NCBI RefSeq assembly: GCF_902652685.1
Contig: NZ_CACRUY010000011.1
Location: 38,562 to 70,561, forward strand
DNA length: 32,000 bases
Source: Mycobacterium sp. Marseille-P9652
GTDB lineage: Bacteria; Actinomycetota; Actinomycetes; Mycobacteriales; Mycobacteriaceae
Reading direction: 5' to 3'
A program made the position numbers and the translations under genes. Each line of letters starts with the position of its first letter. The first letter of the stretch is position 1. The notes beneath the pieces are model-generated. The model did not search any database. It saw nothing but the letters and a program-made list of their open reading frames with translations, and was not told the DNA's origin. Shown one piece after another: positions 13,217 through 32,000 of the stretch.

Positions 13217-14653
13217 TCAGGTATCGAAAACTATTGTGCCGTAACCGGTCGGGCTGTACGACAGGTAGATCGGGTGCTGCAGGAACGGGGCGATCCCGGT
13301 GTTGAAGAACCCGCCGAGGGTGCTCGACGAGATGGCCGTCTGTTGGGAACCGACGGTGGTGGTGTACAGCAACTTGCTGCCGTCGCTGGTGTAGACGGCC
13401 ACGCTGGTTCCGGCGGGCAGGTATCCACCGGCGTTCGGCGGCCCGAGGTTGTCGGGCACCGTCCCGCCCAGCCCGCCGGAATCGATGTACGCGCCGGTGG
13501 TCTGCTGCAGTCCGCCGCCGTTGATCCGGATGTCCAGGGTGGTGATCGGCGCCCCGGTCACCGACGCGTATGGGGTCAGCGGGTTGGGGCCGAATTGCAC
13601 CGTTCCCGTGGGCTCGTCAATCAGCAGACCCTGACCGAAGGCGCCCGGCAATGCGGTCACGGGACTGCTCGCGGGACCGTAACCATTGGCCCCCACACCC
13701 AGAATGGCGGGCGCCTGGGATGCGGGATAGGAAAAGACGAAATTCTGGGTTATCGACGTGACGACGGCAATAGTGGTCGGCTGGGTGACAAGGCCGTTTC
13801 CGAAATTCACCGTTGTCGTGTACGTGTTGTAGTTCTCGACGAGCAAATTCCCCAATCCGCCGTAGGTGACGGACCCTTGCCCGGTGGGAGCGCCGAGGCT
13901 CGCGAGATTGACGTCCTGCGGGGGAAGGATCAGACCCCGTGATCCGGTGTCGACAATGACCGGCACGCTCGGTCCGCCGCCCACCGAGACGTTGACGTAC
14001 AGGTCCTGACCCTGCAGTTGCAGGGGCACGGTGGCCAACCCCAGCGGGCCGCTGGCCCCGGGGGACCCGAAAAGGCCGCCGGGGCCGCCGGGACCGCCGA
14101 GCGCGGCCGGGCCACCGGCCCCGCCGGGGCCGCCGTTGCCGATCAACCCCGCGGGCCCGCCGGCGCCTCCGGGCGCCCCGGCGGCGGTGCTGTTTCCGCC
14201 ATGGCCGCCGTTGCCCATCAGGATGCCGCCCGGACCACCGGGCGTGCCGACCCCCCGGGCGTTGGTGACGCCGTCGGCGCCGTCACCGATCAGCGGCCGC
14301 CCCAAAAGCATGTTGGTCGGCGCGTTCACGACCGCGAGGATGTCCTGCTGCAGGATCTGCAGCGGGTCGGCGCTGGCGGCCTCGGTCGCCGCGTACATCC
14401 CGGCGCCCGAATTCAGTGCCTGGACGAATTGCGTGTGCATTGTGGCGGCCTGAACGGCCAGCGCCTGATAAGAGGACGCGTACGCGGAAAAGATCGTCTT
14501 GATGGCTCCCGATACCTCGTCAGCCCCCGCCGTGAGTATTTCGGTTGTCGGTGCGGCCGCCGCGGCGTGCGCCGCGCCAATCCACGACCCGATGTTCGCC
14601 ACTTTTGTCGCCGCGTCGGACACGAATTCCGGCGCAGTGATCACAAAAGACAC
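13217..14653 (-). CDS. PE-PGRS family protein with C-terminal pepsin-like aspartic protease domain (PecA / PE_PGRS35 type)
   Basis: 478 aa, GTG start at 14653 with GGGAAGAGG upstream. The PE domain is [10 protein letters not shown]...AAADEVS-like. A Gly-rich GGxGG linker covers residues about 121-205. Catalytic motifs are VIVDTGSRG (D235) and AYIDSGGLG (D391). Confidence 0.9.
14039..14293 (-). repeat. PGRS-type low-complexity GGC/GCC-rich coding repeat inside the PE gene
   Basis: Encodes [61 protein letters not shown]. The DNA is reiterated GGNCCNCCNGG units. Confidence 0.8.
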
Positions 14654-16394: not shown

Positions 16395-17255
16395 TCATTC
16401 GGGCCGGGTTAACCCCAGTGGTCCGGCCAGTTCACTCAGCGCGCTCAGCAGGGTGCCTTCGTCCCAGCCGCCCACCACCTGGATCGCGACGTGGTCGGCG
16501 CCGGCCTCGTGATGCTGCGCGAGGCGCCGCGCGACCGCCTCCGGGGTGCCGTGGGCGACGACCGCATCGACCAGCCGGTCGCTGCCGGGCTTGCGCACGT
16601 CGTCCTGCGTGAACCCCAGCCGCAGCCAGTTGTTCACGTAGTTGGCGAGGTCGAGGTTGAGTTGCAGTTGGTCGCGCCCCAACGCGCGGGCCCGCTCGGC
16701 GTCGGTCGTCACGATCACCTTGTGCTCCGGCGCAAGGAACACCGCGTCGCCGACCAATTCCCGCGCCTTCGCGGTGTGTTCCGGGGTGGTCAGGTAGGGG
16801 TGGGCGCCCGCGGAGCGTTCGGCGGCCAGCCTGAGCATCTTCGGGCCGAGCGCCGCCAGCACCCTGCGGCTCGTCGGAATCCCGCGGACGTCCAGCTCGT
16901 CGAGGTACCCGACCACGGCGTCGTACGGCTTCACGTAGGCCTGGTCGACCTCGCGGTGGCCGGCGCCGACGCCCAGCAGGAACCGGCCCAGGTGGGCGCT
17001 TTCGATGCGCGCGAACGAGTCGGCGACGGCCGGGGCGGGCGCGGACCAGATGTTGAGGATCCCCGTCGCCAACTGCAGCGAGGTCGTGCGTTCCAGCGCC
17101 GGCTCCACCCACGCCAGGTCGGCGTCCGGTGACGCGCCGATCCAGACCGCGCCGTACCCGAGCGACTCGATCTTTGCCGCCAGCTCCGGCGTGACCGACC
17201 GGGTGGGCAGCCACACGCCGAACCGGCCCAGGTCGGGCTTGAGCGACACGGTCAC
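16395..17255 (-). CDS. LLM-class (luciferase-like) F420-dependent oxidoreductase, Rv3463-like, copy 2
   Basis: Track ORF 16395..17987 trimmed to the GTG at 17255, which overlaps the upstream stop (GTGA). The 286-aa protein VTVSLKPDLGRFGVW...GAHPYLTTPEHTAKAR... is a paralog of the upstream gene. Confidence 0.85.
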   Translation of the reverse strand: MTVSLKPDLGRFGVWLPTRSVTPELAAKIESLGYGAVWIGASPDADLAWVEPALERTTSLQLATGILNIWSAPAPAVADSFARIESAHLGRFLLGVGAGHREVDQAYVKPYDAVVGYLDELDVRGIPTSRRVLAALGPKMLRLAAERSAGAHPYLTTPEHTAKARELVGDAVFLAPEHKVIVTTDAERARALGRDQLQLNLDLANYVNNWLRLGFTQDDVRKPGSDRLVDAVVAHGTPEAVARRLAQHHEAGADHVAIQVVGGWDEGTLLSALSELAGPLGLTRPE

Positions 17256-18094
17256 CGAAGCCCCAGCGGGCCCGCCAGCTCGGCCAGGGCCGAGACCAGG
17301 TTCTCGTCCTTGGTGAGGACCTGCACGGGGACGTGGTCGGCGCCGGCGTCGAGGTGTTCGTTCAGCCGCGCGGCGATCTGGTCGGGGGTGCCGTAGGCGA
17401 CGACGGAGTCGACCAGCCGGTCGCTGCCCGGACGGGCGACCTCCTCGTCGGAGAAGCCGAGCCGCTTCCAGTTGTTGCGGTAGTTGGCCAGGTTGAAATA
17501 GATGTCGAGCGCCCTGCGGCCGACCGCCCGCGCCTTCTCGGGGTCGGTGGTCAGGACGACCTTGTGCTCGGGGGCCAGGAATGCCGACGGACCGATCAGC
17601 GCGCGGGCCCGCGCGGTGTGCTCGGGCGTGGTCAGATAGGGGTGCGCGCCCGCGGCACGCTGCGCCGAGAGTTTGAGCACCCGCGGCCCGAGGGCGGCCA
17701 CGACGCGCCGGTGGGCGGGGACCCCGTATTCGTCCAGCTTGTCGAGGTACTCCACCAAGGCGTCGTAGGGCTTGCGGTACTCGCTGTGGGCCTCGGGATG
17801 GCCGACGCCGATGCCGAGCAGGAAACGGCCCGGGTACGCCCCGTCGATGCGGTGGAACGACTCGGCGACCGGGCCCGCGGCCGCCGTCCAGATGTTGACG
17901 ATGCCGGTGGCCACCTGCAGCGTGGTCGTCGCCTCGAGGAGTGGCTCGACCCAGGCGAGCTCGGCGGGCGGCGAACCGCCGACCCACACGGCCCCGTAGC
18001 CCAGGGACTCGATCTCTTTGGCTTGCTGGGGCGTGACGCCGCGTCCGAACGATCCGAACCGGCCGAGGTTGGGCTTGCTGGCTGCATCCGTCAT
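17252..18094 (-). CDS. LLM-class (luciferase-like) F420-dependent oxidoreductase, Rv3463-like, copy 1
   Basis: Track ORF trimmed to the ATG at 18094 (MTDAASKPNLGRFGSFG...), giving 280 aa. It shares long colinear blocks with copy 2 (LGYGAVW.G, AELAWVEP, GRFLLG.G.GH, AGAHPYLTTPEHTA.AR, FLAPEHKV, LANY.NNW.RLGF, PGSDRLVD.VVA.GTP). Confidence 0.85.
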   Translation of the reverse strand: MTDAASKPNLGRFGSFGRGVTPQQAKEIESLGYGAVWVGGSPPAELAWVEPLLEATTTLQVATGIVNIWTAAAGPVAESFHRIDGAYPGRFLLGIGVGHPEAHSEYRKPYDALVEYLDKLDEYGVPAHRRVVAALGPRVLKLSAQRAAGAHPYLTTPEHTARARALIGPSAFLAPEHKVVLTTDPEKARAVGRRALDIYFNLANYRNNWKRLGFSDEEVARPGSDRLVDSVVAYGTPDQIAARLNEHLDAGADHVPVQVLTKDENLVSALAELAGPLGLR

Positions 18095-18123: not shown

Positions 18124-19608
18124 CTATTCCTCGGCGGGCGTCAGCTCCAGGGGCAGCAGAACGATGAAGCGGGTGTCGCCGGGCGCCGATTCCACGCGCA
18201 GGTCGCCGCGGTGTTTCTTGACGACGATGTTCCACGCCAGGTCCAGCCCGAGGCCCGTGCCTTCCCCGACCGGCTTGGTGGTGAAGAACGGCTCGAAGAT
18301 CCGGCTTCGGACGTCGTCGGGGATTCCGGGTCCGGTATCGCAGATCTCGACGCGCGCCATCTTTTCGCCGTCGCGGCGGGTCCGGATCGTCAGCGTGCCG
18401 CCCTTTGAATCGGGACCGGCGCCCATCGCGGCGATCGCGTTGTCGATGATGTTGGTCCACACCTGGTTGAGATCGCCGGGGTAACAAGGGATCTGCGGCA
18501 GTGAGGTGTCGAACTCCTTCACCACCGCGATGGCGGCGTCTTTTCGTGCGTGCGGGCCGATCCGGTCGGCGAACATCGTGAGCGTGCTGCGCAACAGGTC
18601 GTGGACGTCGGCCACCTGGAACGGGGCGCGGTCCATCTGCGAATACTGCTTGGCGTCGGCCACCAGCGCCGAGATCCGCTTGCTCGCCTCCAGGACCTGG
18701 TTCAGCAGCAGCTCACCTTCGACGGTGTAGGTCAGCCAGCGGATGGCCTTCTCCAGTGAGGTCGACGCGCCCATCTCCTCGGTCGCCGCCGCGATGCGTT
18801 CGAGCCAGTCGGTGTCGATGCCGCCCTCGACGAACGTCGGCGCGATGTCCCACCCGCCCTCGATGCCGTGGTCTTCGAGCCATTCCCCGACGGCGTCCTC
18901 CCGGTCGGCCGTCTCGATCGCGCTCAGGTTCGCCGACGCCGACTTGATGACCTGGGCCGCGACCTCCTCCTGCAGGCGCACCAGCGCCCGCAGCGCCTCC
19001 GGGGTGACGGTCCCGTCCGCGAGCATGGCGAGCTTCTGGCGCATGCCGGCGACCCGCTCCCGCAGCTCGGCCGCGGCCCGGACCGTGGCGGCGGCAGGGT
19101 TGTTCAGCTGGTGGGTCAGCCCGGCGGACAGCTGGCCCAGGGCGAGCAGTTTCTCCCGGTTGCCGATGATCCGCCGCGTGCGCTCCTGACCGACCGCCAT
19201 GCCGTCGAGCAGGTGAACGGCCATCGGGAACTGGTCCTTCATGAAGCGGGCGAAGGCCGGCGCGTCGAGCACGAAGAACCGCGACGGCTTGGTGACGTAC
19301 ACCGTCGCGTCGTAGCTCTGGTGTTCCGACTGCCCGGTGAAGGCCCGCCAGGCGCCGCAGTAGACGCCGCGCTGCGAGGTCCGGTTGGTCTCGATCTCCT
19401 GGCCGCCGGAGAGCTTGGACATTGCCAGCTCGCCCTCGATGAGGACGTAGAAGCACGTCGCGGGTTCGCCCTCGACGCAGATCGGGCCGGGCTCGTAGTG
19501 CTGGATGTGCCCGCTGGCGCACAACTCCCCGAGCTGCTCGTCGGTGAGGGCCTCGAAGAGGAACAGGCTGCGCAGCTCGCCGGGATCGCACGGCTGTGCG
19601 GTGGTCAT
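18124..19608 (-). CDS. Sensor histidine kinase with N-terminal cyclic-nucleotide-binding-like domain (soluble)
   Basis: Track ORF 18124..20910 trimmed to the ATG at 19608, which overlaps the upstream stop (ATGA 19605-19608). 494 aa. The CNB-like beta-roll is LFLFEALTDEQL...FYVLIEGEL. Kinase motifs are H-box LSAGLTHQLNNP (H166), N-box QVWTNIIDNAI, G1 ICDTGPGIP, F-box IFEPFFTTK and G2 GTGLGLDL. No TM segment is seen. Confidence 0.9.
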   Translation of the reverse strand: MTTAQPCDPGELRSLFLFEALTDEQLGELCASGHIQHYEPGPICVEGEPATCFYVLIEGELAMSKLSGGQEIETNRTSQRGVYCGAWRAFTGQSEHQSYDATVYVTKPSRFFVLDAPAFARFMKDQFPMAVHLLDGMAVGQERTRRIIGNREKLLALGQLSAGLTHQLNNPAAATVRAAAELRERVAGMRQKLAMLADGTVTPEALRALVRLQEEVAAQVIKSASANLSAIETADREDAVGEWLEDHGIEGGWDIAPTFVEGGIDTDWLERIAAATEEMGASTSLEKAIRWLTYTVEGELLLNQVLEASKRISALVADAKQYSQMDRAPFQVADVHDLLRSTLTMFADRIGPHARKDAAIAVVKEFDTSLPQIPCYPGDLNQVWTNIIDNAIAAMGAGPDSKGGTLTIRTRRDGEKMARVEICDTGPGIPDDVRSRIFEPFFTTKPVGEGTGLGLDLAWNIVVKKHRGDLRVESAPGDTRFIVLLPLELTPAEE

Positions 19609-21272
19609 GATTCGGCGAGGTAGCGGTGCACGAGCATGACGGCCATGGAGCCCTCGCCGACCGCGGCCGCCACCCGCTTGGCCGACGACGAGCGCACGTC
19701 GCCGGTGGCGAACACCCCGGGCACGCTGGTCTCCAGGTGGTGGGGCGGCCGGTCCAGGGTCCAGCCGCAGACGTTGCGCAGATCGGGGCCGGTGAGGATG
19801 AACCCGCGCTCGTCGCGCGCGACCACCCCGTCGAGCCAGTCGGTGCGCGGCGCGGCGCCGATGAAGATGAACATGCGGTCGCACGTGACGTCCTCGGTGT
19901 CGCCGGTGCGGTTGTCGACCAGGGTGAGCTTCTCGAGGTGCTCGGTGCCGGTGGCGCACTGGACCTCGGTGCAGGTGCGGACGGTGATCTTCGGGTTCCG
20001 CTCGATCTGCTGGATCAGGTAGTAGGACATCGACGCCTCCAGCGAGGCGGCGCGGACGACGATCGTCACCGACTTCGCCTCGCGGGACAGGTGCATGGCG
20101 GCCTGGCCGGCCGAGTTGGCGCCGCCGACCACGAACACGTCTTCGTCCCTGCACTCCGAGGAGATGGACGTCGCAGCGCCGTAGTAGACGCCCTTGCCGG
20201 TCAGTTCCTCGCAGCCGGTCGCCGCCAGCTGGCGGTAGGCGACACCGGTGGCCAGGATGACGGCGTGCGCGTCGATGGAGCCGCCGTCGGCGAACCGCAC
20301 GGTGCGCGCGGACCCGTTGACCTCGAGCGCGGTGGCGGTGCGCGCGGTGATGAGCTCGGCCCCGAACTTCTCGGCCTGCCGGCGCGCGCGGTCGGCGAGC
20401 TGGCCGCCCGACAGCCCGTCTGGGAAGCCCAGGTAGTTCTCGATCCGCGAGCTCTGGCCGGCCTGGCCCCCGGTCGCGGTGCGCTCGATGAGCACCGTGC
20501 GCAGGCCCTCCGACGCGCCGTAGACGGCTGCGGCGAGGCCGGCGGGGCCGCCGCCGATGACGACCAGGTCGTAGAAGTCCTGCGACGGCGTGGTGGTCAG
20601 GCCCAGCGTGTCGGCGAGTTCGGCGTCGCTGGGTTCGACCAGCGTGGTGCCGCGTTCGGTGACGACGACCGGCAGGCGCAGGCCGTCCTCGCCGGCGGCC
20701 TGCAGCAGCCGCTGGCCCGCGGGATCGTCGGACATGAACCAGGTGTAGTAGAGCCCGTTGCGGGCCAGGAAGTCGCGGACCTGCCAGGACCGCGCCGACC
20801 AGCGGTGCCCGATCACCTTGGTGTGCGGGATGGGCCGTTCGGGCGTGCGCCGCCAGGCTTCCAGCAGCGCGTCGACCACCGGGTAGAGCTTTTCCTCGGG
20901 CGGGTCCCACGGCTTGAGCAGGTAGTGGTCGAGGTCGACGACGTTGATCGCGTCGATGGCGGCGTGGGTGTCGGCGTAGGCGGTCAGCAGGATGCGCCGC
21001 GCCGCCGGGTAGAGGTCCATCGCCTGCTCGAGGAACTCGATTCCCGTCATCTGCGGCATCCGGTAGTCGGCGATCAGCGTCGCGACCGCCTCGCCGCGCA
21101 GCTTGAGCTCCTTGAGGGTGTCCAGCGCCTCGGGCCCGGATTCGGCCCGCACGATCCGGTGGTCCTCGCCGTAGTGGCGGCGCAGGTCGCGGGCCACGGC
21201 CCGGGACACCGAGGGATCGTCGTCGACGGTCAGCATGACGGGCTTGCGGGGCTGTCCAGCGGGATTCGTCAT
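19605..21272 (-). CDS. Fused response-regulator receiver / glutaredoxin-like linker / thioredoxin-reductase-like FAD-dependent pyridine nucleotide oxidoreductase
   Basis: 555 aa.
- REC domain: acidic pocket LTVDDDPS, phospho-acceptor IADYRMP (D69), LLTAY (T97), YLLKPW (K120).
- TrxR-like part: FAD motif DLVVIGGGPAGLAAAVYGA, TGGQAGQSSRIENYLGFP, second Rossmann motif VFVVGGANSAGQAA, and GVFATGDVR.
- Where TrxB has CATC, the sequence reads GVYYGAATSISSEC (nt 20151-20192). Confidence 0.9.
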   Translation of the reverse strand: MTNPAGQPRKPVMLTVDDDPSVSRAVARDLRRHYGEDHRIVRAESGPEALDTLKELKLRGEAVATLIADYRMPQMTGIEFLEQAMDLYPAARRILLTAYADTHAAIDAINVVDLDHYLLKPWDPPEEKLYPVVDALLEAWRRTPERPIPHTKVIGHRWSARSWQVRDFLARNGLYYTWFMSDDPAGQRLLQAAGEDGLRLPVVVTERGTTLVEPSDAELADTLGLTTTPSQDFYDLVVIGGGPAGLAAAVYGASEGLRTVLIERTATGGQAGQSSRIENYLGFPDGLSGGQLADRARRQAEKFGAELITARTATALEVNGSARTVRFADGGSIDAHAVILATGVAYRQLAATGCEELTGKGVYYGAATSISSECRDEDVFVVGGANSAGQAAMHLSREAKSVTIVVRAASLEASMSYYLIQQIERNPKITVRTCTEVQCATGTEHLEKLTLVDNRTGDTEDVTCDRMFIFIGAAPRTDWLDGVVARDERGFILTGPDLRNVCGWTLDRPPHHLETSVPGVFATGDVRSSSAKRVAAAVGEGSMAVMLVHRYLAES

Positions 21273-27237: not shown

Positions 27238-28092
27238 TTAGACCAGCGGAGCCTGCGGCGCGGGCGTGCTGGGCACGTTGGGTGCGGGCACCGTGGGGCC
27301 GCTGCCGGGCGTCTGCGGTGCATAACCCGGGTTTTGGGGGCCATTACCCGGCGTCTGCGGACCGGTGCCGGGCATCTGCGGGGCGTACGCCGGCGTTTGC
27401 GGTCCGTATCCGGGCACCTGCTGGCCGGAGCCGGCCAGCAGCTTGGACGCGACGAACTTGGCCGCCTCGGTGGTGTAGACGGGGACGTATCCCTCGGTGT
27501 GCCCGGTCCACTCGTTGCCCTGACCCGCGTGGCAGATCGGGTCTTGTGGGTTGCACAGGTCGATCGCGTTGGCGCCGAGCAGCGCGCTCTGCGTGGGCAG
27601 GGTGCCGCCGGCGCGGTCGGCGACGTCACCGAAGGTGGCGACGGCCGCGATGTTGCTGGCGTACTGCGGCGGGAGCGAGTTGCCCCAGTTGATGCCTCCA
27701 ATGGGCACGCCGGCCACGATGTCCATCACCGATGCGCCCTGTGAGTAGCCGCCCAGCACGATCTTGGTGTTCGGGCACTTCTCGACGCTCTTCTTGACGC
27801 GGTCGATGGTGTCGTTGGCGCCGTCGCCGCCGTGCAGCTGCAGCTTGCTGGCGGCGTAGTTCACCCCGTACGGCAGGATGTTCAGGCCCGGGGCCTGCTG
27901 GCGCAGGGAGTCGACGAACGCGTCCCCGACCCGCCCGAGGCCGGGCGGCTCGTTGGTGCCGCGCGCGAAGATGACCTCGACGTTCGGGCAGTCGTCGGCC
28001 GAGGCCGTTGGTGCCGCGACGGGGGTGACGAGGGCGGCGGCGGCGAACGCGGCGCTCGTCAGGCCGACCCAACGACCGGCTGACCGCGCCAT
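27238..28092 (-). CDS. cut3: Secreted cutinase-family serine esterase with Pro-rich heptad-repeat C-terminal tail
   Basis: ATG at 28092 ([32 protein letters not shown] signal). The track start is a GTG at 28140. Motifs are [26 protein letters not shown] and DPICHAG...TGHTEGY. The tail is (PGxGPQT)n. Confidence 0.85.
27241..27414 (-). repeat. Degenerate 21-nt (7-aa) tandem coding repeat, about 8 units
   Basis: Encodes [56 protein letters not shown]. On the plus strand, GTCTGCGG-like cores recur at 27311, 27353, 27374 and 27394. Confidence 0.8.
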
Positions 28093-28198
28093 ACCCTCTC
28101 GAGGGCCCCCCCGTGGGCCACGTGTCCGCTGAAGAGTCACCCCGAGATCTTAACCGCAGGTGGCGGGGACCGAAAATTCGCTGACCTGTGGATAAGCG

Positions 28199-29602
28199 GT
28201 GCCGGCCCAGCGGGCAGCGCCCTACCGTGGGCGAAAGATCAGCAGATCAGGGGGGTCCGTGCCGCGTCCGCCGTCCGTTTGGCTGCAGGTCTCGGGCTAC
28301 CGGTTCCTGCTGCGTCGCCTGGAGGCGGCGTTGCTGACCGGAGACGCGAGCGCGCCCGTGCGGGGGCGCTCGGCGGCCCTGGCGTTCGGGTACCTGGTCG
28401 CCGCCCTCGCCGCGGCGGGCTGCGCGCTGCTGGCCGTGCTGCGCCCGCATCCGGCGTTCGCGCAGGAGCGGCTCGTGATGACGCGAGAATCCGGCGCGCT
28501 GTACGTGCGGGTGGGCGACACCTGGCACCCAGTGCCGAACATTGCCTCGGCGCGGTTGATCGCCGGGGCCGACCTGAACCCACGGCCGGTGCGCGGGTCG
28601 GACCTGGCCCGTACGAGGCGCGGACCGCTGCTCGGCATCCCCGGCGCACCGGAGTTCCTCGGTGCCCCGCTGTCCGGGGGCGAGTCTGTGTGGACGATCT
28701 GTGACGCAGACGGGGTGACGACGGTGGTCGCCGCCCCGGCCGTCGGTTCGCCGGCCGGGGTCCTGGCTCCCGACGCGGGCGTGCTGGTCGCGCCGGTGTC
28801 GGGCTCGCCCACCTATCTGCTCTACAACGGGCTGCGGGCCGTCGTGGACCTGGCCGACCACTCGGTGGTGCGGGCCCTGCGGCTCGAGGGCAGGGCGCCG
28901 AGGCCGGTGTCGCAGTCGTTGCTCGACGCCGTTCCCGAGGCGCCCGCGATCGCGGCGCCTCGCGTGCGAGACGCGGGGCGCCCGGTCGCCGGTTTGCCGG
29001 GGTTCGCGGCAGGGAGCGTGCTGCGCATCGCCCGGGCCGACGGCGACGAGTATTACGCCGTGCTGACCGGGGGCGTCCAGCGCATCGGCCAGGTGGCGGC
29101 CGACATCCTGCGCTTCAGCGACTCGCGGGGCACCGCCGGCGCGACCACGGTGGCGCCGGATGCGATTCGGGCCATTCCGACGGTCGACTGGTTGCCGGTC
29201 GGGACCTTCCCCGACCGCCCACCCATGCCGGCGCGGGCGGGCGGCGTCGTCTGTGCCGCGTGGGGCCCATCGGGTGTCACGTTGCTGGCGGGTGGCGAAC
29301 CGCCGCTGCAGCCGGGCCAGGCCCCCGTCGCGCTGGCGCAGGCCGACGGGCGGGGCCCGGCGCTCGACGCCGTCTACCTGCCACCCGGCCGCAGCGCCTA
29401 CGTCCGCGCGGGCGGGATCCGCTTCCTCATCATCGACACCGGGGTGCGGTTCGCGGTCCGCGACGACGAGGACGCGCGCGACCTGGGCCTGCCGGCGCCG
29501 CTGCCCGCGCCCTGGCCGGTGATCGCCGCCCTGCCGTCCGGGCCGGAACTGAGCAGGCAGGGCGCGTCAGTCGCGCGCGACGCCGGCGGGGTGCCGCCGT
29601 AA
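28199..29602 (+). CDS. eccB4: ESX-4 type VII secretion system core component EccB
   Basis: 467 aa from the GTG at 28199. An alternative GTG at 28259 follows AGGGGG. It has the EccB signature VWLQVSGYRFLLRRLEAALLTGD followed by a TM helix (ALAFGYLVAALAAAGCALLAVL) and a large extracytoplasmic domain. Its neighbours are mycP and eccD. Confidence 0.85.
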   Translation: MPAQRAAPYRGRKISRSGGSVPRPPSVWLQVSGYRFLLRRLEAALLTGDASAPVRGRSAALAFGYLVAALAAAGCALLAVLRPHPAFAQERLVMTRESGALYVRVGDTWHPVPNIASARLIAGADLNPRPVRGSDLARTRRGPLLGIPGAPEFLGAPLSGGESVWTICDADGVTTVVAAPAVGSPAGVLAPDAGVLVAPVSGSPTYLLYNGLRAVVDLADHSVVRALRLEGRAPRPVSQSLLDAVPEAPAIAAPRVRDAGRPVAGLPGFAAGSVLRIARADGDEYYAVLTGGVQRIGQVAADILRFSDSRGTAGATTVAPDAIRAIPTVDWLPVGTFPDRPPMPARAGGVVCAAWGPSGVTLLAGGEPPLQPGQAPVALAQADGRGPALDAVYLPPGRSAYVRAGGIRFLIIDTGVRFAVRDDEDARDLGLPAPLPAPWPVIAALPSGPELSRQGASVARDAGGVPP

Positions 29603-30835
29603 TCGACGGGCGCCTGAGCAGGCCAGCAGCACCAGGAGGCAGACGCCCGCGCCCCGCAGGGCGACGCGCCGGGACCCGGGGCCCCGGGGGCCGGGCGGTG
29701 CCGGTGTGGTGATCGGCACGGGCGCCGGCGTGGACGTGGCGGCGGGTGGCGGCGACCCGGTGCTGACCGCGGCCACGGCGTCGACGGTGCCGTGACCGAC
29801 CAGCGGATCGCGCCCGGTGGTCGCGCGGTGGGCCGTGGACTCGATGCGCCGTATCACCTGGCGGGCCGTCAGGGCGGGGAGGCGGGCACGGATCAGCGCC
29901 GCCAGTCCGCTCACCACGGGTGCGGCGTAACTGGTGCCGGACACCGGCGGCGAGCCGAGCGGCGTGACCCCCTCCCCGGGGGCGGCGACGTCCACCCAGG
30001 GGCCGGCCAGGGTGAAGGCCGACGGGGTGCCGTCCGCGCCGACGGATCCCACCGTCAGCACGTAGTCGTCGTACCAGGCCGGGCTGACCGCGACCGTGAC
30101 CGTGTCCCAGGTGGCGCCCGGCCGCTGGGGCGGGCACGGCGCGGAGCCGCCGGCGTTGCCGGCCGTGTTGCCGGCCGGCGCCACCACGACCGCGTTCTTG
30201 ACGTCGACGGCGTAGGCCAGCGCCGCTCCCAACGCGCGGTCGTCCAAGCCGGCCGCGGCGCACGCCACCGTCGAGATGTTGATCACCGAGGCGCCGAGGT
30301 CGGCCGCCGTCCGGACCGCCTTCGCCAGGGTGTCGACGTCGCCGACCCCGGTGTGGGACGGGTCGCTGGCCGGGGCGAATCTCGCGCTGGACTGGCGGAT
30401 GCTCAGCACGGTCGCGTCGGGCGCGGTCGCGGCGATGACGCCGGCGACCAGCGTTCCGTGCGCGTCGCAATCCTGCGTGCCGTCGCCGGTCGACACGAAA
30501 TCGCCGCCGGCCACCACATCGGGCAACCCGCGATGCCGGGCGACGCCCGTGTCGATCACCGCCACCCTTTGCCCGGCGCCGCGGGTGAGTTGCCAGGCGC
30601 GCGACAGGTCGGGGGAACCGGCGACCCCGTTGCCGGCCGGTGGCGCGTCGGCCGGCAACGGGGCGCACGCCTCGCGCTGCACTGTCGGCCATGGCGGCGC
30701 CGGCGCGGCGGGCCGGGGCAGCCATCGGTCGTCGATCGCGGGCGGCGAAACCGCCTGCGCCACCGGCGTTGTGCACTGCGACAGCGCCGCGACGGCCGTG
30801 ACGATCACGAGCCGCACGGCGCGCGTCGCTGTCAC
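29567..30835 (-). CDS. mycP4: ESX-4 mycosin (membrane-anchored subtilisin-like serine protease)
   Basis: Track ORF 29567..31834 trimmed to the GTG at 30835, which overlaps the eccD4 stop (GTGA). Signal peptide VTATRAVRLVIVTAVAALSQC...AQA. Catalytic residues are VAVIDTGV (D), DAHGTLVAG (H) and SGTSYAAP (S). There is a Pro-rich linker and a C-terminal TM anchor VCLLVLLAC. Confidence 0.88.
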   Translation of the reverse strand: MTATRAVRLVIVTAVAALSQCTTPVAQAVSPPAIDDRWLPRPAAPAPPWPTVQREACAPLPADAPPAGNGVAGSPDLSRAWQLTRGAGQRVAVIDTGVARHRGLPDVVAGGDFVSTGDGTQDCDAHGTLVAGVIAATAPDATVLSIRQSSARFAPASDPSHTGVGDVDTLAKAVRTAADLGASVINISTVACAAAGLDDRALGAALAYAVDVKNAVVVAPAGNTAGNAGGSAPCPPQRPGATWDTVTVAVSPAWYDDYVLTVGSVGADGTPSAFTLAGPWVDVAAPGEGVTPLGSPPVSGTSYAAPVVSGLAALIRARLPALTARQVIRRIESTAHRATTGRDPLVGHGTVDAVAAVSTGSPPPAATSTPAPVPITTPAPPGPRGPGSRRVALRGAGVCLLVLLACSGARRLRRHPAGVARD

Positions 30836-32000
30836 GGCGGGCCGAATCCGCGCACGGCGGCGTAGATTCCGCAAATTTCGAAGGTCAACGGCACCGTCGC
30901 GACCAAGGCCGACCACTCCAGCACCTCGGCCGCTCGGCCGGCGAGCGGTGACGTCGTCGGGGCAACGAACCCCAGGCCCATCGCGGCGGCGGCCAGCACC
31001 GCGGTCGCGGCGGCGACTAACGGTCCACGATCGGTGGCATGTGCGGCAGACACCGCGAATGTCGTTGCGATGACGGCGGTTCCGCCCACGACGAACACGA
31101 CGGCGCGCCTGATGTCCGCGCCGCGGGACCGGAGAAGCAGAAGCGCCCCGGTGAGGACACCGAAGGCGATGCAGCTCAGGCACGGGGCGCCGGCGAGAAC
31201 GGTGGCGACGGCCGCGGCGGCGGCTGACGCGCCGAAGGCCGCGAGCAGGACGGTGAGCCAGCGGTCGGCGCGCCGCGCCGCGGCGTGCACGCCGGGCCCG
31301 ACGCTCCCGGCGTCCAGGCGCGGCGACAGACCGGCCAGCATGATCGATACCCGGCCCGCCGCCCCGAGCAGGCCGAGGCACGCGAGCGTGGACACCGACG
31401 CGATCGTGCGCAACGGGGCGCCGGTGATCGCGCCCGCCAGCGTCGCGGCCGCGACGATGACCGACAGGCACGCGACGGCGCTGAGCGTGACGCCACCGCG
31501 GCCGCCCGCGAGCGTCGCCAGAACCGCGGTGGCGGCGGCCGCCGACGCGGCAAGCGCCGAGTGGGCGACATCGGGCGGTCCCGGCACGGCGAGAACTCCG
31601 GCGACCGCGGCGAACAGGACGGCAAGGATGTTCAGCGCGAGCGCGGCCGCCCGGTCTCGGCATGACCGCTGCGCGATCGCCGCGCCGAGCAGGGCAGCGG
31701 TCGCGGCCGCCGCCGCGATGGCCGCGGTAATCGCGTTGTGGCTCAGCGCGTTCAGCCCCAGCACCATGCCACCGACACCGGTCAGGCACGCCGCCGCGGT
31801 GGCGCGGGCGAGCCGCGACTGGGCGCTGCCCCACGGCCGGGCCACGCCCGCGAGCGTCGCGGACACCGCGCCGGCCGGGTCGTGGTGCCGTGGGACGGCT
31901 TGCGGGGCGGGCCCGGGGGCGAGCACCAGGATGTCGCCGTCCCGGATCTCGTTGTCGGACAATGTCGTCGCGGCGTCCATCGCCGGATCGCCCAGCCGGG
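30832..32000 (-). CDS. eccD4: ESX-4 secretion system membrane channel component EccD (5' end outside the window)
   Basis: Polytopic membrane protein with many Ala/Leu/Gly-rich TM helices. The frame stays open upstream of the M at 31980 (..RLGDPAMDAATTLSDNEIRDGDILVL), which looks like the end of the EccD ubiquitin-like domain. The true start therefore lies beyond nt 32000. Confidence 0.8.
   Translation of the reverse strand, partial: RLGDPAMDAATTLSDNEIRDGDILVLAPGPAPQAVPRHHDPAGAVSATLAGVARPWGSAQSRLARATAAACLTGVGGMVLGLNALSHNAITAAIAAAAATAALLGAAIAQRSCRDRAAALALNILAVLFAAVAGVLAVPGPPDVAHSALAASAAAATAVLATLAGGRGGVTLSAVACLSVIVAAATLAGAITGAPLRTIASVSTLACLGLLGAAGRVSIMLAGLSPRLDAGSVGPGVHAAARRADRWLTVLLAAFGASAAAAAVATVLAGAPCLSCIAFGVLTGALLLLRSRGADIRRAVVFVVGGTAVIATTFAVSAAHATDRGPLVAAATAVLAAAAMGLGFVAPTTSPLAGRAAEVLEWSALVATVPLTFEICGIYAAVRGFGPP

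Follow-up and report, generated by a model that had tools for sequence, protein, structure and literature searches.

A histidine kinase with a helical module in its DHp hairpin and a variant CRP/FNR-type sensor, encoded beside a flavoprotein response regulator in Mycobacterium sp. Marseille-P9652

How might a histidine kinase signal when about a hundred extra residues split its phosphorylation domain and its only sensor resembles a cyclic-nucleotide receptor without the residues that hold the nucleotide? This question is raised by one gene in the 32,000-nucleotide stretch of DNA analysed here (the window), positions 38,562 to 70,561 of contig NZ_CACRUY010000011.1 of Mycobacterium sp. Marseille-P9652. 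Our analysis suggests, with a probability of roughly 60%, that the encoded kinase is the sensor of an ancient, multi-phylum and uncharacterised two-component cassette that works by the mechanism proposed below. The cassette consists of a response regulator with receiver (REC), glutaredoxin (Grx)-like and thioredoxin reductase (TrxR)-like flavoprotein domains, followed by the kinase with its cyclic-nucleotide-binding (CNB) type domain and, in many taxa, by a zf-UBP protein. The kinase clearly works within the two-component paradigm, and it clearly lacks both contact features of cyclic nucleotide receptors as well as two standard features of the dimerisation and histidine phosphotransfer (DHp) domain of HisKA kinases, namely a short hairpin and, in the Mycobacteriaceae clade, an acidic residue right after the phospho-acceptor histidine (H+1). 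The DHp hairpin normally has only a few residues, its geometry decides between cis and trans autophosphorylation, and it borders the surface for receiver docking and specificity. If our reading is true, a conserved and autonomously folding hairpin domain with no detectable relative would be a new way for a histidine kinase to take up an input or to recognise a partner.

The gene and its junction with the regulator gene upstream are as follows.

18124..19608, reverse strand (-): sensor histidine kinase gene, 494 amino acids (aa), CNB - DHp[insert] - CA, with CA the catalytic and ATP-binding domain (open reading frame, Pfam, NCBI match)
19605..19608, (-): ATGA, the kinase start codon over the response-regulator stop codon (sequence)

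The product is 100% identical to an NCBI entry called 'ATP-binding protein' from Mycobacterium sp. Marseille-P9652. Its highest Kyte-Doolittle mean over 19 residues is 0.85, so there is no transmembrane segment and the kinase is soluble. Both this and the ATGA overlap had been read by a first-pass annotation made from the letters of this DNA, and both hold. Family-wide motif counts were made on the kinases of 85 genome loci and on 83 regulators, and sensor residues were also counted in a pool of 240 actinobacterial proteins. All 85 loci are actinobacterial (Mycobacterium, Mycolicibacterium, Nocardia, Rhodococcus, Streptomyces, Pseudonocardia, Kribbella, Frankia and others), while the members from Cyanobacteria, Chloroflexota and Acidobacteriota are referred to as the non-actinobacterial clade. 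Gene fusion, frameshift or mis-annotation was considered as a source of the unusual architecture and is ruled out by thousands of full-length homologues with the identical architecture.

The kinase core is divided into four parts, with the extra material lying between the two DHp helices.

19018..19161, (-): DHp helix 1 with the H-box LTH(166)Q(167)LNN(170)P; H166 codon at 19111-19113 and the Gln at H+1 at 19108-19110 (Pfam, PDB alignments)
18757..19017, (-): acidic four-helix insert, residues 198-284, in place of the DHp hairpin loop; motif D235-R-E237-D238 at 18895-18906 (split alignments, AlphaFold2, conservation)
18634..18756, (-): DHp helix 2, residues 285-325; the homology runs on into the CA domain (NCBIfam and PDB alignments)
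18145..18621, (-): CA (HATPase_c) domain with intact N, G1, F and G2 boxes (Pfam, locus conservation)

The phospho-acceptor H166 sits in LSAGLTHQLNNP, which aligns to the H-boxes of ZraS and CckA, and it is kept in 85/85 loci. Pfam HATPase_c (PF02518) covers residues 379-488 with 79 bits, and the ATP-binding boxes (D424-x-G-x-G, FFTTK and G450-x-G-x-G) are equally constant, with N390, D424, G426, G428, G450, G452 and G454 present in every one of the 85 kinases. H166 and N390 are separated by 224 residues, just the distance that the first-pass annotation had given, and a second canonically spaced histidine is absent when all histidines of the protein are inspected (positions 34, 37, 96, 132, 166, 247, 336, 353 and 466). 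Comparison at the sequence level shows a soluble kinase of the HisKA type, in which the phospho-acceptor His166 is invariant and the ATP-binding domain intact. The closest cores are of the NtrB/AtoS/ZraS/CckA type (9jfj for ZraS, 5idj for CckA), which share the H-box type h-A-G-L-(T/A)-H-E-L-N-N-P with Asn at H+4, and whose helix 2 and complete HATPase_c domain align to the kinase with E-values of 1e-19 to 1e-20. The kinase differs from them in its hairpin, in having Gln and not Glu or Asp at H+1 in the window's clade, and in its sensor, which is a beta-roll and not a PAS, GAF or periplasmic domain.

The location of the extra residues comes from split alignments. Against CckA, phmmer aligns residues 151-178 with positions 4-31 of the chain and residues 302-487 with positions 49-239; against ZraS, residues 149-194 pair with 16-63 and residues 307-491 with 68-239. 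By alignment an autonomous helical module of 106-108 residues stands where CckA and ZraS have 5-18 residues, and by structure the extra material comes to ~85. The full Pfam HisKA model is unmatched because of these additional residues between the two helix alignments: it covers helix 1 only, with residues 157-184 on profile positions 2-29 of 66 (17 bits, below the cut-off of 26.9). NCBIfam kinase models align only from about residue 300 on, and then gapless through the CA domain. DHp helices are normally 'connected by short hairpin loops' (PMC6798134), and this kinase has no short hairpin. The position that the first-pass annotation had proposed for about 110 extra residues, between the two DHp helices, is thereby borne out.

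The full-length AlphaFold2 (AF2) model is a monomer built from a 52-sequence alignment, with a mean predicted local distance difference test score (pLDDT) of 80.7 and a predicted template modelling score (pTM) of 0.43. In it, DHp helix 1 spans residues 161-197, the insert forms helices 203-222, 230-246, 252-261 and 266-278 (pLDDT 81-95), and helix 2 spans residues 285-325. Residues 190-300 modelled alone reach a pLDDT of 87.1 and a pTM of 0.78, and because this part models so well by itself, the insert is in the AF2 models an autonomous folding unit. This supports an earlier suggestion that it may be an independent domain; the same residues have a net charge of -13, in line with the acidic character also noticed before. 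The extra residues could still be placed outside the hairpin, with helix 203-222 as the true DHp helix 2 and residues 230-325 as a linker domain between DHp and CA, since helix 1 ends at residue 197 and the five residues before the next helix give normal short-hairpin geometry. We regard such a linker as most improbable, as the homology to helix 2 of CckA, ZraS, AtoS, HK853 and others falls at residues ~300-330 and passes gapless into the CA domain, and residues 203-222 have no profile similarity to DHp helices.

No relative of the module within the hairpin was detected: a Foldseek search of the insert against the PDB gave no match (best E 1.1), the insert profile picked up only noise among PDB sequences, and 28 inserts scanned with Pfam likewise gave noise and no family. 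A duplicated DHp hairpin or an internal repeat was also considered and was rejected, with hhalign probabilities of at most 3%. When the insert by itself was compared by phmmer with 1.84 billion representative proteins, 538 of them matched at E <=1e-3 and 137 at E <=1e-10. The full-length ones are ~460-500 aa long with the insert at the same place, and on these alignments the module appears to be confined to this kinase architecture. Some metagenomic proteins of ~970 aa (P0179, P0220 and P0261) are head-to-tail fusions of two such kinases.

The insert varies little over the 85 loci: it has 81-92 residues and a net charge of -8 to -17 (median -13), and Q213, E232, D235, E237, W243, W253 and W268 are each at least 98% conserved. 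The motif [S/A]-D-x-E-D...W-L-[ED]-x-H is also found in Cyanobacteria, Chloroflexota and Acidobacteriota, so the insert is conserved across four phyla. It should sit at the distal tip of the helical bundle, beyond the receiver-docking surface, because the hairpin of ZraS-type kinases lies ~30 residues past the histidine. Such a module could be purely structural: by extending or capping the dimeric bundle it would stabilise the dimer or set the handedness of the loop, with no role in partner binding or sensing. In favour of this, the module is compact, consists of helices only and bridges the two DHp helices at their ends, its three invariant Trp resemble core residues, one Leptolyngbya paralogue dispenses with it, and charge complementarity with the regulator is absent. 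We think this unlikely, given that the acidic [S/A]-D-x-E-D motif together with Q213 and E232, which are presumably surface-exposed, has been kept over four phyla, and that the net charge stays within its acidic range, both of which exceed the needs of a scaffold, and that the length is so tightly fixed. A platform for a partner or a second input is the reading we prefer.

The residue after the phospho-acceptor histidine raises a separate point, which the first-pass annotation does not contain. The H-box of the window kinase reads H-Q-L-N-N-P, with Gln167 at H+1, where autokinase activity requires an acidic residue. We found Gln at this position in 26/26 loci of Mycobacterium and Mycolicibacterium and in 119/119 close homologues. 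Glu stands there in all 59 remaining loci and in 117 of 119 actinobacterial proteins from outside this group; of the 115 matching proteins from the non-actinobacterial clade, 114 have Glu and one has Asp. Asn170 at H+4, where phosphatase activity requires Thr or Asn, is present in 85/85. Replacement of the corresponding Glu in CrdS (E372Q, and also A, D and G) abolished autophosphorylation and left the phosphatase intact, and E-to-A had the same kinase-minus and phosphatase-plus effect in HK853, HK4262 and HK1190 (PMC3510030). The engineered mutants CrdS E372Q and HK853 E261A resemble the window kinase in combining a non-acidic H+1 residue (Gln in the window) with an intact Asn at H+4, but in the mycobacterial kinase the substitution is natural and fixed in a family-level clade, and its effect is predicted by analogy. 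On this basis the mycobacterial enzyme is predicted to be phosphatase-biased or a slow kinase, with autokinase activity that would be weak or missing, and the natural Gln clade offers a ready test of the rules for separating kinase and phosphatase activities that were derived from engineered mutants.

A stronger form of this idea is that the Mycobacteriaceae protein is no longer a kinase at all but a dedicated signal-regulated phosphatase or a pseudokinase scaffold, with the receiver phosphorylated by another donor. The complete replacement of Glu by Gln in this clade, the behaviour of the E-to-Q and E-to-A mutants, the invariant N170 and the loss of the zf-UBP gene from the same clade all speak for it. 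On the other side, H166 and every ATP-binding box are invariant in the Mycobacteriaceae, tolerance of Gln at H+1 may vary among kinases, and no alternative phosphodonor was identified. We hold a full loss of kinase activity to be somewhat unlikely, though a possibility to be kept in mind, and prefer an enzyme that would be strongly biased towards phosphatase activity.

The only sensory module of the protein lies at its N-terminus.

19189..19587, (-): CRP/FNR-type beta-roll sensor, residues 8-140, then a long C-helix into DHp helix 1 (Pfam, PDB match, AF2)
19294..19368, (-): variant phosphate-binding cassette (PBC), residues 81-105, GVYCGAW...SYDATVYV, with A86 for Glu and Y99 for Arg (alignments, locus counts)

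Pfam cNMP_binding (PF00027) matches residues 42-125 with 36.2 bits, above its cut-off of 27.5, and AF2 predicts the strands of the beta-roll. In the same model the C-helix, residues 128-158, continues into DHp helix 1, and we infer that this is the expected route of the signal. The PBC of cyclic nucleotide receptors follows the pattern G-E-x-x-x...P-R-[ST]-A-T-V. Here the segment G85-A86-W stands opposite G-E-x when aligned to PKG II and opposite G-E in the family members from the non-actinobacterial clade, and Y99 falls on the canonical Arg for the cyclic phosphate in the alignment with those members and with the known PBC pattern. At position 86, the Glu that contacts the ribose 2'-OH gives way to Ala in 80 and Ser in 5 of the 85 loci, and to Ala in all 240 proteins of the pool. 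At position 99, the cyclic-phosphate contact Arg gives way to Tyr in 84 loci and His in one, and to Tyr in 239/240. The non-actinobacterial clade keeps the Glu and has Ala, Tyr or Ser at the Arg position. These alignments show that the cyclic-phosphate Arg is missing family-wide and that the Glu is also missing in Actinomycetota. The loss of both residues had been recognised in the first-pass annotation, which called the domain degenerate. This word needs correction: because the substituted residues are almost invariant, the beta-roll is, judged by its conservation, a variant domain that is maintained and not one that decays.

The closest solved match to the sensor is DNR (E 1e-10 in the PDB comparison), a haem/NO-sensing CRP/FNR regulator and not a receptor of cyclic nucleotide monophosphates (cNMP). 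Like DNR, CooA, NtcA and FNR, which do not use cNMP, the kinase sensor has a beta-roll and C-helix and is without the cyclic-phosphate Arg; unlike them, it drives a histidine kinase and not a helix-turn-helix, and it has its own invariant set (Y83, A86, Y99, M129 and H132, with or without C7, C30 and C52), while their ligand residues are not shown to be conserved in it. M129 and H132 lie in a conserved 'FPMA-HLLEG' helix. The family-wide loss of Arg, the fixed Tyr and the similarity to DNR support the earlier proposal of a ligand other than cAMP or cGMP; the sequence evidence argues against canonical cNMP binding and does not itself give the identity of the ligand. The beta-roll might still accommodate a cyclic nucleotide or dinucleotide, cAMP and cGMP among them, in a pocket of a non-canonical kind, and the kinase would then be controlled by a second messenger. 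Its score above the Pfam threshold, the PBC Gly-Glu retained in the non-actinobacterial clade and the fact that mycobacteria are rich in cAMP signalling count in favour of this. We consider it very unlikely, as the Arg is absent in every clade examined and the Glu from each of the 85 actinobacterial loci, DNR as the nearest structural relative is a haem sensor, and CRP/FNR-type rolls bind many other ligands, among them haem, 2-oxoglutarate and Fe-S clusters. Our preference remains a non-nucleotide cue.

Three cysteines of the sensor were considered as a site for such a cue. C52 (codon 19453-19455, (-)) is present in 85/85 loci, and C7 (19588-19590, (-)) and C30 (19519-19521, (-)) are both present in 79 loci and both absent in 6, the joint losses representing at least two independent events. 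Among divergent representatives, 3 of 15 keep a single Cys of the C7/C30 pair and several are without C52. Sensing by an Fe-S cluster or a disulfide through C7, C30 and C52 is downgraded by these single-Cys exceptions and C52 losses, and from their distribution the three residues could be a thiol or metal site that is clade-specific at most.

The regulator upstream of the kinase has three domains.

19605..21272, (-): cognate response regulator, 555 aa (Pfam, NCBIfam, alignments)
20868-21239, (-): REC domain, with D69 at 21066-21068
20589-20825, (-): Cys-less glutaredoxin/mycoredoxin-like domain, with WSARS at 20787-20801
19608-20582, (-): TrxR-like flavoprotein domain without CxxC, with GAAT at 20169-20180 and the invariant C374 at 20151-20153

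The receiver residues D17, D18, D69, T97 and K120 are present in 83/83 regulators. The C-terminal domain is TrxR-like (E 8e-47 to solved TrxRs), and its GAAT aligns with the CATC/CAAC redox centre. CxxC is absent in 83/83, with Gly at the position of the first Cys and no Cys at the second; a different single Cys, C374, is invariant, and the glycine motifs for FAD and NAD(P)H are intact. The NCBIfam model TRX_reduct gives 224 bits, where its cut-off is 343. The name 'REC-TrxR' used for the partner in the first-pass annotation is thus a misnomer. For the middle domain the best solved match is mycoredoxin-1 of M. tuberculosis (2lqo, E 8e-4), in which WCGYC aligns with WS(A/P)xS: WSARS in the window regulator and WSPxS in cyanobacteria stand at the mycoredoxin active-site position. 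Pfam Glutaredoxin scores ~22 bits on this domain, just under the threshold in 4/5 sequences, a weak but consistent signal. The regulator shares the two-Rossmann TrxR fold and the motifs GGGPAG and GGANSAG with the low-Mr thioredoxin reductases (E 1e-47 to PDB TrxRs), and with AhpF and NTRC the fusion of a Trx-fold domain to a TrxR-type unit. It differs from all of these in having G-[AS]-[AST]-x for CxxC in every regulator, WS(A/P)xS for WCGYC and an N-terminal receiver. By these alignments the output of the regulator is a flavoprotein that has lost both dithiol centres. Neither the kinase nor this flavoprotein regulator, with redox cysteines in neither its Grx-like nor its TrxR-like domain, has been characterised.

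In 84/85 loci a regulator homologue lies directly upstream of the kinase, and at the remaining locus there is no DNA upstream of it; in three Mycolicibacterium loci ~1.4 kb separates the two genes. The regulator stop and the kinase start share 4 nt in 45/83 loci and 1 nt in 6/83 (51/83 together). With identities of 66-87%, the regulator is better conserved than the kinase, for which they are 54-86%. This adjacency, the overlap and the invariant catalytic residues of the receiver support the view, first drawn from translational coupling, that the kinase and the adjacent regulator are a cognate pair, between which phosphotransfer is predicted. The pairing is also found in Leptolyngbya, Tolypothrix, one genome of Phototrophicaceae (Chloroflexota) and one of Thermoanaerobaculia (Acidobacteriota), and the non-actinobacterial clade keeps the insert while being without the PBC Arg. 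Cyanobacterial loci can have two or three tandem kinase paralogues behind one regulator (L086, 5001-9119; L087, 5001-7833), as in Leptolyngbya with one regulator and then three kinase paralogues. The cassette is common: our genome scan matched more than 600 species-level genomes, a lower bound, over Actinomycetota, Cyanobacteria, Chloroflexota and Acidobacteriota, and the carriers include many environmental and opportunistic mycobacteria, Nocardia, Rhodococcus and Streptomyces.

A third gene, for a small zf-UBP (PF02148) protein, follows the kinase in most of the non-mycobacterial loci, with a 4-nt overlap in 32/47. Examples are given by locus.

L001, 7467-7817: zf-UBP gene
L002, 7442-7789: zf-UBP gene
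L087, 7898-8152: zf-UBP gene
L089, 4033-4299: zf-UBP gene

It is present in most loci of Nocardia, Streptomyces, Rhodococcus and Pseudonocardia and lies near the pair in Tolypothrix and an acidobacterium, and it is absent from the window and from all loci of Mycobacteriaceae, Kribbella, Frankia and Williamsia that were examined.

We propose the following mechanism for the cassette. The beta-roll would read a non-nucleotide cue, most plausibly a redox-related or thiol-reactive one, for which the Cys, Met, His and Tyr residues of the pocket speak, as does the flavoprotein nature of the output. The cue would reposition the C-helix and, being continuous with it, DHp helix 1. This would set the balance between phosphorylation and dephosphorylation of D69 in the regulator and so switch the NAD(P)H- and FAD-dependent activity of the flavoenzyme. 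The insert at the distal DHp tip would most likely serve as a platform for partner interaction or a second input, an inert spacer being unlikely. Its partner could be the regulator, through its bulky output domains, or else the zf-UBP protein or a cation. In the Mycobacteriaceae clade, the fixed Gln at H+1 is predicted to bias the kinase strongly towards phosphatase.

Several of our results weigh against this proposal. No ligand was identified for the beta-roll, and the Cys trio is not universal, since Kribbellaceae and several divergent representatives are without at least one of these cysteines. In the full-length AF2 monomer the placement of the domains has low confidence (DHp pLDDT 40-58, besides the low pTM); the DHp helices are poorly predicted, as is to be expected when an obligate dimer is modelled as a monomer. 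One Leptolyngbya paralogue of 415 aa within the same cassette is without most of the insert, which is therefore not essential to the kinase fold. Electrostatic complementarity between insert and regulator was considered and is ruled out, as all three regulator domains are also net acidic. In the mirror-tree comparison REC is the domain with which the insert correlates best (r 0.82, partial 0.66), but the value for CNB and REC is close to this (0.79 and 0.61), and so the signal is not specific to the insert. The invariance of H166 and of all ATP-binding boxes in the Gln clade suggests that some phosphoryl chemistry or nucleotide binding is retained there.

In Streptomyces coelicolor, SCO7297 (kinase) and SCO7298 are listed, from P2CS, as an unnamed kinase and a 'TrxB-type' regulator (PMC9739842). 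They resemble the window cassette in having the regulator first, then the kinase, and a TrxB-type output, an order found in all Streptomyces loci examined, and are probable orthologues of the window pair. SCO7298 ('trxB3') is induced by sulfane sulfur (PMC9952706) and by acid shock (PMC2631018), which we count as a hint in favour of the proposed mechanism. A search of the literature on cNMP-binding kinases, TrxB-type regulators, DHp insertions and SCO7297/7298 turned up nothing beyond catalogue entries and data on expression, and in the searchable literature we found no published characterisation of the kinase, its sensor ligand, the insert or the chemistry of the regulator.

We speculate further that the insert at the DHp tip might be a previously undescribed signalling domain and a second interface of the kinase, which binds the Cys-less Grx-like and CxxC-less TrxR-like output module of its own regulator, the zf-UBP protein or a cation, such that the redox or flavin state of the output enzyme feeds back on the balance of kinase and phosphatase and closes the loop of a redox two-component system, which mycobacteria would have rewired to phosphatase-only by the change from Glu to Gln at H+1. 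This extended version is doubtful, and we regard it as quite unlikely in its entirety.

The window represents a conserved region of the mycobacterial chromosome round infA, judging from the neighbour genes rpoA, rpsD, rpsK, rpsM, infA, rmlB/rmlC, a cutinase, the ESX-4 eccB, a subtilase and a PE-PGRS protease. In M. tuberculosis the pair is presumably absent, with Rv3462c (infA) immediately followed by Rv3463. Two tandem paralogous genes of luciferase-like (Bac_luciferase) oxidoreductases, at 17252-18094 (-) and 16395-17255 (-), lie downstream of the kinase, the first beginning 29 nt past the kinase stop, and the order of infA, regulator, kinase and the two luciferase-like genes is kept in all 25 other Mycobacteriaceae loci. 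They were considered as functional partners of the kinase and set aside, as only in Mycobacteriaceae do they regularly lie next to it, and there the whole region from infA to these genes is syntenic; their adjacency probably reflects regional position and not function. The gene at 13217-14653 (-), adjoining rmlC and rmlB, encodes a PE-PGRS protein whose C-terminal domain is aspartyl-peptidase-like (PF20729, 317 bits, DTGS motif). The right-hand end of the window, 27238-31834, has a G+C content of ~0.76 and carries a cutinase, an ESX EccB gene (28199-29602, +) and an open reading frame for a mycosin-like subtilase, which is consistent with an ESX-4-type locus.

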